Assembly (NCBI GenBank): GCA_964016885.1
Contig: OZ024763.1
Coordinates: forward strand, 22,940,001 to 23,004,000
DNA length: 64,000 nucleotides
Reading direction: 5' to 3'
Origin: Eledone cirrhosa
Taxonomy: Eukaryota
Under the pieces are notes generated by a model. The model saw nothing but the letters and a program-made list of their open reading frames with translations, was not told the origin of the DNA and made no database searches. Positions 268 through 27,480 of the stretch are shown here, in pieces; the first letter of the stretch is position 1; every line of letters begins with the position of its first letter. Position numbers and translations under genes: made by a program.

Positions 268-410
268 CCTATAGGGTCGTTCCACATGAGTTCCCATGCA
301 AGGGGGCTCTCCTCTTCAGGATTAGGTAAGGGCACCGGGATACTGTTGATAACTTCCATTTTCCCATTGCCATGTATAGGGCTAGGGATACCACCATGAG
401 TACAGAAGAT
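268..410 (-). CDS. Phosphatase exon 17 (IFCTHGG...ELMWNDP)
   Basis: PPP HGG and WxDP motifs; ccag acceptor, gtaagt donor. Confidence 0.97.
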
Positions 411-27265: not shown

Positions 27266-27480
27266 GATAGATAGAGAGAGTGAGAGAGAGAGTTAAATCT
27301 TTTCTGTTTTACCTTGACCATTAGTCTGTGGACAGTCTTATCCAAATGGCGATCAGAACTACTACGGCGACATGTAGGTAACCAAAATCCTTGTTGTTTA
27401 TGGTTCACAAGAAGGAACTTTCCATCGGTCAGCCGAGGGACCAGAATACTGATGATCTGTGAGGAGATTGTAGGGGGCAT
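268..27480 (-). CDS. Multi-exon PPP-family Ser/Thr protein phosphatase with N-terminal Nudix-like region and EF-hand pair; 17 coding exons in window, 3' end lies outside the window
   Basis: Manually spliced exons, all GT-AG and phase-compatible, total 2072 nt. Motifs GDIHG, GDYVDRG, RGNHE, IFCTHGG and WNDP occur in order. C-terminal PPP motifs not yet reached at position 268. Confidence 0.93.
647..749 (-). CDS. Phosphatase exon 16 (ECLTKFG...[13 protein letters not shown])
   Basis: PPP FD-x-(L/M)-PL-x-A motif; ttgcag acceptor, gtgag donor. Confidence 0.97.
1547..1653 (-). CDS. Phosphatase exon 15 (VVSYLF...LLRGNHE)
   Basis: PPP RGNHE motif; tctcag acceptor, gtgagt donor. Confidence 0.97.
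1760..2200. repeat. (CAC/CAT/TAC)n low-complexity tract; similar at 23350-23515
   Basis: Degenerate trinucleotide repeat in an intron. Confidence 0.85.
2230..2360 (-). CDS. Phosphatase exon 14 (GDIHG...GDYVDRG)
   Basis: PPP metal-binding motifs; ttgcag acceptor, gtaagt donor. Confidence 0.97.
2480..2766 (-). mobile_element. Second tRNA-derived SINE family; related copies at 9020-9277(-) and 22650-22780
   Basis: Box A TGGCTTAGTGG, box B GAGTTCGATTC; central TTGAGCAAGACACTT. Confidence 0.78.
3161..5660. repeat. 37-bp minisatellite (GATATACACAGGGATACAGTGTACCTATTGTATACCA), intronic
   Basis: Direct tandem periodicity. Confidence 0.97.
5692..5824 (-). CDS. Phosphatase exon 13 (EAFSWG...[15 protein letters not shown])
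   Basis: ttacag acceptor, gtttgt donor; typical PPP E-x-x-LL-x-L-x-x-P lead-in. Confidence 0.93.
6100..6900. repeat. 48-bp tandem repeat derived from the RTE-tail retroposon
   Basis: 16-codon period; runs directly into the RTE tail at 6900. Confidence 0.95.
7142..7222 (-). CDS. Phosphatase exon 12 ([16 protein letters not shown]...ESK)
   Basis: tttcag acceptor, gtaagt donor, 81 nt. Confidence 0.88.
7966..8282. repeat. 25-bp tandem repeat (TAAAAGAGGGGCAGTTTAGTGTTGT)
   Basis: About 12-13 units. Confidence 0.95.
8352..8443 (-). CDS. Phosphatase exon 11 (TEAVSASS...[10 protein letters not shown])
   Basis: aacag acceptor, gtagga donor, phase 1-0. Confidence 0.86.
9492..9641 (-). CDS. Phosphatase exon 10 (ASDSDS...[19 protein letters not shown]...DLE)
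   Basis: aacag acceptor, gtaag donor, phase 1-1. Confidence 0.88.
9665..10115. repeat. Degenerate ~60-70-bp tandem repeat
   Basis: Recurring gtcttaagatatatattagacttatgacatatt..tttatgatgcatgtatcaaaa. Confidence 0.75.
10241..10436 (+). mobile_element. tRNA-derived SINE with MetaSINE-like core; other copies at 12620-12812(-), 12823-12960, 20205-20395, 21775-21848, 24590-24735(-), 34990-35185, 36925-37118, 45100-45255(-), 57345-57425
   Basis: Box B GAGTTCAAATCC; core GCCTTTCATCC..GGGTCGATAAAATAAAGTACCAG. Confidence 0.85.
10814..10878 (-). CDS. Phosphatase exon 9 ([21 protein letters not shown])
   Basis: aatag acceptor, gtgagt donor, phase 2-1; KKQK may be a nuclear localisation signal (inference). 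Confidence 0.8.
11374..11514 (-). CDS. Phosphatase exon 8 (LFHDDK...[20 protein letters not shown]...SK)
   Basis: ctccag acceptor, gtaag donor, phase 2-2. Confidence 0.88.
11558..11910 (-). mobile_element. Degraded RTE/RTEX-like LINE 3' fragment
   Basis: [31 protein letters not shown]. Confidence 0.75.
13454..13537 (-). CDS. Phosphatase exon 7 ([13 protein letters not shown]...AENIK)
   Basis: atccag acceptor after a (CT)n tract; gtaaaa donor; phase 2-2. Confidence 0.88.
13880..14432 (+). mobile_element. Degraded RTE LINE 3' fragment; related fragments at 39415-39560 and 39625-39830
   Basis: [25 protein letters not shown] tail. Confidence 0.8.
14583..14756 (-). CDS. Phosphatase exon 6, EF-hand pair ([15 protein letters not shown]...[19 protein letters not shown])
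   Basis: cctcag acceptor, gtaaaa donor; two helix-loop-helix motifs with E at loop position 12. Confidence 0.9.
15350..15670. repeat. 72-bp satellite (with 60-bp variants), left part of an array split by the RTE
   Basis: Unit tattatgtgaggtaaagcctttactgtgaaaatacaatagtatatatagagtaatgtaaatgttatgtgaga. Confidence 0.95.
15671..17862 (-). mobile_element. 5'-truncated RTE-clade LINE with uninterrupted RT frame and (GAT)n tail
   Basis: [48 protein letters not shown]; frame open 16024-17862; agtat duplicated at the junctions. Confidence 0.95.
17863..19347. repeat. 72-bp satellite, right part of the array
   Basis: Same unit, resumes in register after the RTE. Confidence 0.97.
19348..19565 (-). mobile_element. 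Short RTE-tail retroposon with (GAT)n tail; copies at 3040-3160, 6900-7050, 7280-7450, 8740-8870, 12165-12410, 15025-15158, 20575-20765, 22040-22292, 24745-24856, 45400-45520
   Basis: Match to the RTE 3' UTR at 15671-15910; gtaat target-site duplication here. Confidence 0.85.
19604..19727 (-). CDS. Phosphatase exon 5 ([18 protein letters not shown]...DDLFR)
   Basis: tttcag acceptor, gtaata donor, phase 1-2. Confidence 0.88.
19994..20113 (-). CDS. Phosphatase exon 4 (ENDSSMRF...[10 protein letters not shown])
   Basis: atttattccag acceptor gives the phase 1 required by exon 3; gtttgt donor. Confidence 0.78.
20905..21468. repeat. 72-bp satellite array, more diverged
   Basis: Same unit, preceded by MITE body. 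Confidence 0.93.
21598..21712 (-). CDS. Phosphatase exon 3 ([15 protein letters not shown]...[14 protein letters not shown])
   Basis: ccag acceptor, gtattt donor; WFSLEE resembles the C-terminal Nudix W-x-x-x-E-E element. Confidence 0.85.
22882..23022 (-). CDS. Phosphatase exon 2 ([11 protein letters not shown]...DIPTLT)
   Basis: ttgcag acceptor, gtaagt donor, 141 nt, phase 0-0. Confidence 0.85.
23825..24172. repeat. Degenerate 27-bp tandem repeat (cccattaaatccagccctggttgtcac)
   Basis: 27-nt spacing of ccattaaa. Confidence 0.8.
24874..25137 (+). mobile_element. 3' fragment of L1/Tx1-like LINE, nearly identical to 32830-33092
   Basis: Direct sequence match; AATCTATCTAT duplicated on both flanks. 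Confidence 0.88.
26231..26297 (+). ncRNA. Type I hammerhead ribozyme motif
   Basis: CTGATGA 26239; stem II tga.gacagata/tatctgtc.tca; GAAA-cc-act-gg-TA; imperfect stem I tattcttt/aatgaaata. Confidence 0.72.
27313..27480 (-). CDS. Phosphatase coding exon 1 (MPPTISSQ...[17 protein letters not shown]...LMVK), Nudix-like start
   Basis: acaATG start with an in-frame upstream stop; donor AAG|GTAAAA; phase 0. Confidence 0.8.

Follow-up and report, generated by a model that had tools for sequence, protein, structure and literature searches.

Introduction

Calcineurin (PP2B), in which a catalytic A subunit is paired with an EF-hand B subunit, and PPEF/RdgC (PPP7), a single-chain enzyme with C-terminal EF hands, are PPP phosphatases that join catalysis to EF hands. 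A further group, the EF-hand Bsu1s, is described from Thecamonas, choanoflagellates, a fungus and a stramenopile in the accessible portion of a recent survey (Kerk et al., 2021; PMC8249667). Here we report on a gene in a stretch of 64,000 nucleotides from the octopod Eledone cirrhosa (contig OZ024763.1, positions 22,940,001 to 23,004,000; hereafter the window), whose predicted product carries a Nudix-like fold and an EF-hand module in front of a PPP catalytic domain. The gene represents a real, conserved and apparently undescribed PPP subfamily with a new domain architecture.

The set of animal PPP phosphatases has been treated as closed. According to the accessible part of one study, the basic insect set comprises at most eight enzymes, each matching one of human PPP1 through PPP7 (Miskei, 2011; PMC3137614). 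In apicomplexans, PfPPP8 is a PPP-type pseudophosphatase, and the accessible text of its description mentions neither EFPP nor EF hands (PMC10317984). Table S4 of Kerk et al. (2021), as far as it is accessible, lists the Thecamonas protein XP_013758396.1 (P0240) and a Cryptosporidium entry among EF-hand proteins of this kind, and none of its 19 Metazoa rows belongs to the present family, judging from the sequence starts that the table displays. No paper on this family was found in the literature searched; the phosphatome study of Chen, Dixon and Manning (2017, Sci Signal) and a 2006 survey of sea-urchin phosphatases lie outside that scope and may list the subfamily.

Results and Discussion

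A PPP phosphatase with two N-terminal modules

The gene lies on the minus strand and is modelled as 19 exons that splice into 2376 nt, or 791 codons with one terminal stop. All 18 introns have GT..AG ends. Exons 1 through 17, encoding residues 1-690 of 791, fall at positions 268-27480 of the window, and exons 18 and 19 (L001:9046-8869 and L001:8226-8101, minus strand) were found in 40 kb taken from beyond the window start. Over 791 columns, the spliced product and the O. vulgaris protein P0002 share 81.3% identity. An earlier, sequence-only reading of the window had already recognized an unusual phosphatase here, and all of its motifs that were searched for are present on this strand: DGKFLLV at 27426, GFWLP at 27390, WFSLEE at 21691, GDIHG at about 2361, GDYVDRG at 2265, GNHE at 1593, and three further blocks of 17, 14 and 14 residues at 14674, 11450 and 9570. 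Exon 4 and the last two exons were apparently missed. That reading placed about 485 residues before the PPP motifs, but GDIHG begins at residue 530; the lower figure fits the 489 residues that precede this motif when exon 4 is left out.

Structural comparisons were made with a predicted fold of the orthologue P0002, built from a 64-sequence alignment and standing in for the window's own spliced protein, by searching it against 48,161 solved chains. The model has a mean pLDDT of 84.5 and a pTM of 0.54, with low confidence at residues 354-392 and 410-451; its domains are confidently predicted and their mutual arrangement is unsettled. The Nudix-EF-PPP order is the same in all 64 aligned orthologues, some of which are encoded on short, transcript-sized contigs.

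The catalytic domain begins in exon 13 (residues 486-529; 5692-5824). It continues through exon 14 with GDIHGN and GDYVDRG (residues 530-573; 2230-2360), exon 15 with GNHE (residues 574-608; 1547-1653), exon 16 (residues 609-643; 647-749) and exon 17 with HGG and WNDP (residues 644-690; 268-410), and exons 18 and 19 hold RRGT, RAHE and the SSSRYC motif. Residues ~450-787 of P0002 match PPP phosphatases with Z scores of 30-37, and a Foldseek search with the whole model returned only phosphatases among the matches listed. The metal-binding and catalytic residues of GDxHG, GDxVDRG, GNHE, HGG and RxH(E/Q) are all in the window gene and are kept in 62-64 of the 64 orthologues, as are both phosphate-clamp arginines and the Asp of WxDP. 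A two-arginine phosphate clamp, DP and RG doublets and a motif 6 Tyr-Cys are PPP features according to the accessible text of Kerk et al. (2021). The window protein has them in WNDP at residue 686, RRGT at 714 and SSSRYC at 762. The five catalytic motifs are also intact by pattern in 56 of 62 further representatives that match both the EF module and the catalytic domain. The family members P0149, P0159 and P0207 have catalytic motifs that are off pattern and are possible pseudophosphatases. Pfam finds neither TPR nor Kelch repeats in P0002, and Kelch is also missing from the Pfam column of 103 family hits.

The EF module is encoded by exons 4 through 8. Exon 4 (residues 142-181, 120 nt; 19994-20113) supplies the connector from the Nudix-like domain and the first helix of the module, and exons 5 (residues 182-222; 19604-19727) and 7 (residues 281-308; 13454-13537) lie within it. 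In exon 6 (residues 223-280; 14583-14756), EF loops start at residue 226 and at residue 268, both of them non-canonical, and there is an HGG..RCKYIFR motif; exon 8 (residues 309-355; 11374-11514) ends the module with a FRGTS motif that it shares with the EF-hand Bsu1s. Residues ~150-350 of P0002 match calaxin (Z 14.3, rmsd 3.8, 178 aligned), CBL2 (Z 13.9, rmsd 4.7, 175 aligned) and CIB2 (Z 13.0, rmsd 4.2, 167 aligned), and the module resembles calcineurin B-like proteins in the Atlas (TM 0.60). An EF-hand pair had been proposed from the sequence; the region is more than a pair, being a module of ~190 residues with the predicted shape of four-EF-hand proteins.

This module is clearly homologous, by sequence comparison, to that of the EF-hand Bsu1s of Kerk et al. 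(2021). With module borders taken from the family profile, the two align with a profile-profile probability of 100 and an E value of 1.4e-40 over 176 columns. An HMM made from eight EF-Bsu1 modules gives the window protein 100 bits, compared with 3-13 bits for four other EF-hand PPPs that served as negative controls.

Between the EF module and the catalytic domain lies a linker with two motifs that are as conserved as the catalytic domain itself (mean top-residue share 0.84 and 0.78, against 0.74). Exon 9 (residues 356-377; 10814-10878) encodes a poorly conserved part with low pLDDT in the orthologue model. Exon 10 (residues 378-427; 9492-9641) carries the YELATH..RRTG motif, the most conserved stretch measured (0.84). 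Exon 11 (residues 428-458; 8352-8443) carries an R-x-x-S-x-x-x-F motif at 8381-8358 that is a candidate phosphorylation site, and exon 12 (residues 459-485; 7142-7222) a conserved helix preceding the catalytic domain. All 64 orthologues have the R, the S and the F of the second motif. Hydrophobic residues occupy -5 and +1 and an Asp lies at +2, so that the site presumably resembles a CaMKII-type site. Part of the conserved linker is of low confidence in the P0002 model, and a complex prediction of the first motif (P0002 residues 390-430) with the catalytic domain, made without alignments, gave a score of 0.02 and no verdict.

The N-terminal domain is encoded by exon 1 (residues 1-56; 27313-27480), which contains the ATG, the first half of the domain, GFWLP and a degenerate Nudix box region, by exon 2 (residues 57-103; 22882-23022) with the central strands, and by exon 3 (residues 104-141; 21598-21712), which ends it with WFSLEE and LLGPEP. 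The Nudix-like start recognized from the letters is borne out by the predicted model and by orthologue sequences, which together indicate a Nudix fold. Residues 1-147 of P0002 match many Nudix hydrolases (Z 12-14, rmsd 2.7-4.0, 123-145 aligned) and a NUDIX cluster in the Atlas (TM 0.74). Pfam NUDIX passes or equals its cut-off in three of five orthologues chosen for the purpose (P0042, P0073 and P0103) and falls below it in the other two (P0093 and P0077); neither the three N-terminal exons nor P0002 itself has a Pfam match to Nudix. A family Nudix profile matches 73 of 92 representatives outside the training alignment that have EF and catalytic matches and room in front, and none of 93 mostly Bsu1-type proteins. 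In the metagenomic protein P0081 (581 aa), the EF module, the two linker motifs and the family catalytic start are found, and the 85 residues ahead of them contain nothing Nudix-like; its N-terminus may be incomplete.

The consensus of the catalytic Nudix box is GX5EX7REUXEEXGU. Neither a canonical box nor RExxEE is found in any of the 64 orthologues, and the Nudix-fold domain is likely inactive. Other non-catalytic Nudix domains are found in DBC1/CCAR2, NUDT16L1 and TRPM2 (NUDT9-H).

Proposed regulation within a single chain

On balance, we favor the view that this three-module protein, with its Nudix-like fold, its EF-hand module and a catalytic domain that retains all metal-binding residues, is an active Ser/Thr phosphatase regulated within its own chain. 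Specifically, the single chain would work like calcineurin with a built-in B-type subunit. For most animals, this view has Ca2+ binding at the one canonical EF loop, and such binding would alter how readily the conserved linker motifs reach the catalytic domain. The invariant R-x-x-S could serve as a switch that is set by a kinase. The Nudix-like domain might act as a non-catalytic module for targeting or ligand binding. Since the EF loop of octopods no longer has key ligands, the module probably plays a structural role in these animals, and control would be left to the linker site.

The catalytic domain shares the PPP fold of calcineurin (Z 36.8, 34% identity) and the EF module is calcineurin-B-like in its predicted shape; here, however, everything is in one chain, the EF module is N-terminal, and the family does not group with the single PP2B row of our tree. 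The window protein also ends directly behind the catalytic domain, so that a C-terminal regulatory tail like that of calcineurin A has no place in it. PPEF/RdgC shares the single-chain arrangement with EF hands (RdgC structure Z 34.6, 27% identity), but its EF hands are C-terminal and do not match this module (P0359, 5-7 bits), and its one PPEF-like row lies in another clade.

Several observations weigh against control by Ca2+ through the EF module. The EF-type matches are all-helical, and their Z scores of 13-14 are close to values that the search tool describes as common among helical bundles. None of the 64 orthologues has a canonical first EF loop. The second is canonical in 40 and non-canonical in 24, among them O. 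vulgaris, and both loops of the window protein are non-canonical. Because the loops are non-canonical in so many orthologues, Ca2+ control cannot be general. Furthermore, the nearest protist relatives of the catalytic domain, in cryptophytes and Rhodelphis, have the second linker motif and show no match to the EF module, so the catalytic domain can do without that module.

Position among PPP phosphatases and origin

A tree of 77 catalytic domains over 276 columns was computed with IQ-TREE (LG+G4, unrooted, no mixture model). PP5 and PP7 were left out, the group labels are our own, PP1 was labelled by motif, and 15 protist rows, most of them unnamed, were picked by similarity to the family. The 28 animal rows form one clade (100/99) inside a 43-row clade with the 15 presumed protist rows (100/98), whose named members are Hanusia, Rhodelphis, Chrysoparadoxa and Pelomyxa. 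PP1 (3 rows), PP2A/4/6 (8), PP2B (1), a PPEF-like sequence (1) and the Bsu1 group (17 rows, 99/99) all lie outside. Among the subfamilies sampled, the catalytic domain is thus a clade of its own with unnamed protist PPPs, as judged from sequence. The domain does not nest in PP1, PP2A/4/6, PP2B, PPEF or Bsu1/PPKL, PP5 and plant PP7 being outside the tree.

The diagnostic motifs agree with the tree. The animal family and its protist relatives have GDxHG-N and a 25-residue spacer, with SSSxYC in the family, whereas Bsu1 proteins have GDxHG-Q, a spacer of 27-29 residues and SAT(N/D)YC. The features of PP1, PP2A, PP4 and PP6 (GDxHG-Q, a 21-residue spacer, SAPNY and nesting in their clade) were not found, and identity in structure alignments is 27-34%, with 30% for the PP5 structure. 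Two short contigs in bacterial assemblies, L098 and L091, encode eukaryote-type PP1 and are probably contamination.

The protist relatives (Hanusia, Guillardia, Rhodelphis, Chrysoparadoxa and Pelomyxa) resemble the animal family in catalytic clade, spacer, GDxHG-N and SSxY, and in some cases in the second linker motif. They differ in that they lack a Nudix-like domain and do not match the present EF module; P0348 and P0350 have C-terminal EF hands of another kind. The proposal of an invertebrate subfamily thus holds for the full architecture, which is animal as far as seen, but not for the catalytic clade, which also has protist members with neither EF nor Nudix domains. A wider protist PPP clade (P0143, P0158, P0215, P0348, P0350, P0351, P0357 and P0358) has GDxHG-N/S and SSxY-type motifs, and some of its members have C-terminal EF hands or an FHA domain.

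How, then, is the family related to the EF-hand Bsu1s? P0240 of Thecamonas has the homologous N-terminal EF module, ~185 residues, before its PPP domain, but its catalytic clade and signature motifs are different, and the Nudix-like domain is absent from all 93 proteins scanned. The sequence-only reading had pointed to alveolate EFPP, which we take to belong to the EF-hand Bsu1 group; the link is borne out by the EF module and not by the catalytic domain, which groups outside Bsu1 in our tree.

One explanation, quite possible if short of probable, is that the family represents the Bsu1/PPKL/EFPP group in animals. A single ancestral gene with EF hands and a PPP domain would have given rise to the EF-hand Bsu1s, to the Kelch Bsu1s and to the present lineage, which gained its Nudix-like domain later. 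This reading concerns descent and is compatible with the regulation proposed above. The specific homology of the EF module speaks for it, as does the best single-domain sequence match in the PDB, which is BSU1 (176.7 bits), narrowly ahead of PP1 (169.8 bits). In approximately unbiased (AU) tests, a clade of the family, its protist relatives and six EF-Bsu1s is not rejected (p-AU 0.12). PP1 plus Bsu1 excluding the family is also compatible with the data (p-AU 0.37), however, and a clade of the animal rows with the eight rows labelled EF-Bsu1 alone is rejected (p-AU 3.8e-7), a grouping in which two of the eight have no EF match and the protist relatives are forced outside. A linker motif is like the RQLSIDQF of Kelch Bsu1s by eye, but the resemblance is not significant in a profile comparison (E 0.33). 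The well-supported Bsu1 clade contains no family member, and signature motifs and spacer lengths differ.

Alternatively, the protein may be a chimera, an origin that we regard as possible and hold with some reserve. Close to the base of the animals, shuffling would have combined the EF module of an EF-hand Bsu1 with a catalytic domain from the GDxHG-N clade, the Nudix-like domain being a later addition. Consistent with this, the closest non-animal catalytic relatives have no EF module even in long sequences (P0143, 795 aa, from Hanusia, and P0158, 663 aa, from Rhodelphis), and in Thecamonas and others it is Bsu1-type domains that carry the module, with choanoflagellate EF-hand Bsu1s reported in the accessible part of PMC8249667. 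Repeated loss of the module in protists would give the same pattern, however, and the protist sampling is thin, its 15 rows having been chosen by similarity.

A metabolite sensor at the N-terminus?

The N-terminal domain might also have a more specific task than the non-catalytic module proposed above. Like non-catalytic Nudix domains such as NrtR, it would be a sensor, with ADP-ribose, NAD-type metabolites or capped RNA ends as its ligands, and it would gate the phosphatase. We consider this unlikely. NrtR with ADP-ribose (Z 12.1) is among the structure matches, as are ADP-ribose pyrophosphatases, and the domain has been retained from sponges to tunicates and in most further representatives with room for it. 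However, many other Nudix structures match equally well. The domain is also the least conserved folded part of the protein (0.33 mean top-residue share), being 63% identical between two octopods whose catalytic domains are 95% identical. The residues that are conserved (G-x-W-x-P, E, A, W and LLGxEP) look structural in character, and no conserved ligand pocket was identified. NrtR and AraR, both structure matches, share with this domain a Nudix fold that lacks the catalytic glutamates; they differ in that the present domain is fused to a phosphatase, with a ligand that is only proposed.

Integrity of the gene model

No run recorded as RNA is listed for exon 6. Run X1, a single run of unrecorded kind from one study, is taken as RNA because its contigs are spliced; runs X2 through X4 cover introns. 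A 311-nt contig of X1 joins exons 3, 4 and 5 with 0 differences, and a contig of 1038 nt joins exons 6 through 12, again with 0 differences, and continues for 217 letters past exon 12. Exon 4, which had been predicted from P0002, is therefore among those with a spliced contig. Junctions 1-2, 2-3 and 5-6 and those from exon 12 onward rest on an open frame, GT-AG ends and collinearity with P0002.

That the N-terminal exons belong to another gene, or that the three-part protein is an artefact of the gene model, is very improbable: the lack of spliced contigs over exons 1-2-3 in the one spliced run (for exons 1 and 2, no evidence either way) and an O. bimaculoides model of 255 aa that holds the EF part only (P0001) are set against the splicing of exon 3, the end of the Nudix-like domain, to EF exons, a single open frame with canonical intron ends, and the common domain order of the 64 orthologues. 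Moreover, the orthologues P0009 and P0040 are each encoded whole on 2.6-kb contigs that are taken as transcripts, which indicates a single gene.

No second close copy of the gene came up when its own genome was searched with exons 13 and 14. Exon 13 gave at least one match, and exon 14 at least two, the second of which is weak (58% identity, E 6.5e-4). The intron before exon 13 contains a short duplicate of the exon 13 acceptor and first codons with an in-frame stop (~5932-5900, minus strand), ~110 bases before the real exon.

Distribution and significance

A search with residues 100-520 found 103 proteins among 5028 candidates. Outside the chordates and arthropods, the named hits come from a sponge, cnidarians, molluscs, annelids, nemerteans, a brachiopod, a bryozoan, a priapulid, a flatworm, echinoderms and hemichordates; those within are from scorpion, ticks, barnacle and millipede, and from amphioxus and tunicates. 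From the best 150 representatives of a profile search, 30 were looked up, and they include a moth, three beetles, a cricket, a bed bug and an ostracod. The family is thus present in several insects (beetles, moths, a cricket and a bed bug), in contrast to the insect set of at most eight enzymes cited above. Vertebrates, Diptera and nematodes do not appear among the named family hits, which does not establish absence, as the search with residues 100-520 also missed insect orthologues.

A quick tree of 124 catalytic domains places 58 rows together in a single clade that evolves fast (support 1.0). Ten of the 58 were looked up, and the five that are named all come from acariform mites: P0124, P0128 and P0119 from Halotydeus, and P0137 and P0145 from Blomia. 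The mite copies bear the database names BSL1-like, PPG1-like or calcineurin-like. The family has likely undergone a large expansion in acariform mites, a group sampled only in part.

A broader scenario can be drawn, which we offer as a rather doubtful one. Animals would ancestrally have had an extra, single-chain PPP subfamily beyond PP1 through PP7, derived from an ancient eukaryotic clade, whose calcineurin-B-like module and pseudo-Nudix sensor couple Ca2+ and nucleotide-metabolite signals to dephosphorylation; it would have gone unnoticed through loss in vertebrates, flies and nematodes, and multiplied in acariform mites. More generally, a further conserved subfamily that brings regulatory modules of its own gives invertebrates a new candidate node between Ca2+ and phosphorylation. 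It would also put a non-catalytic Nudix fold to a new use and connect the phosphatases of animals with the EF-hand Bsu1/EFPP enzymes known from protists. If the absence from vertebrates holds, the likely expansion in mites would matter for mite and tick biology.

Putative mobile elements in the window

Several element-like sequences were recognized by eye. Intron 5 of the phosphatase gene contains a 620-codon frame with reverse-transcriptase-like motifs (16024-17886, minus strand), probably a 5'-truncated LINE of RTE type. At 50591-55891 (minus strand) lies a near full-length LINE-like element with frames of 621 codons (zinc knuckle), 918 codons (endonuclease/reverse-transcriptase-like) and 225 codons, and a fragment of the same kind is found at 31970-32833. 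Penelope-like pieces (RT and GIY-YIG-like) and a Tc1/mariner-like transposase fragment are present at 45505-47082 (plus strand) and 42546-43136 (minus strand).

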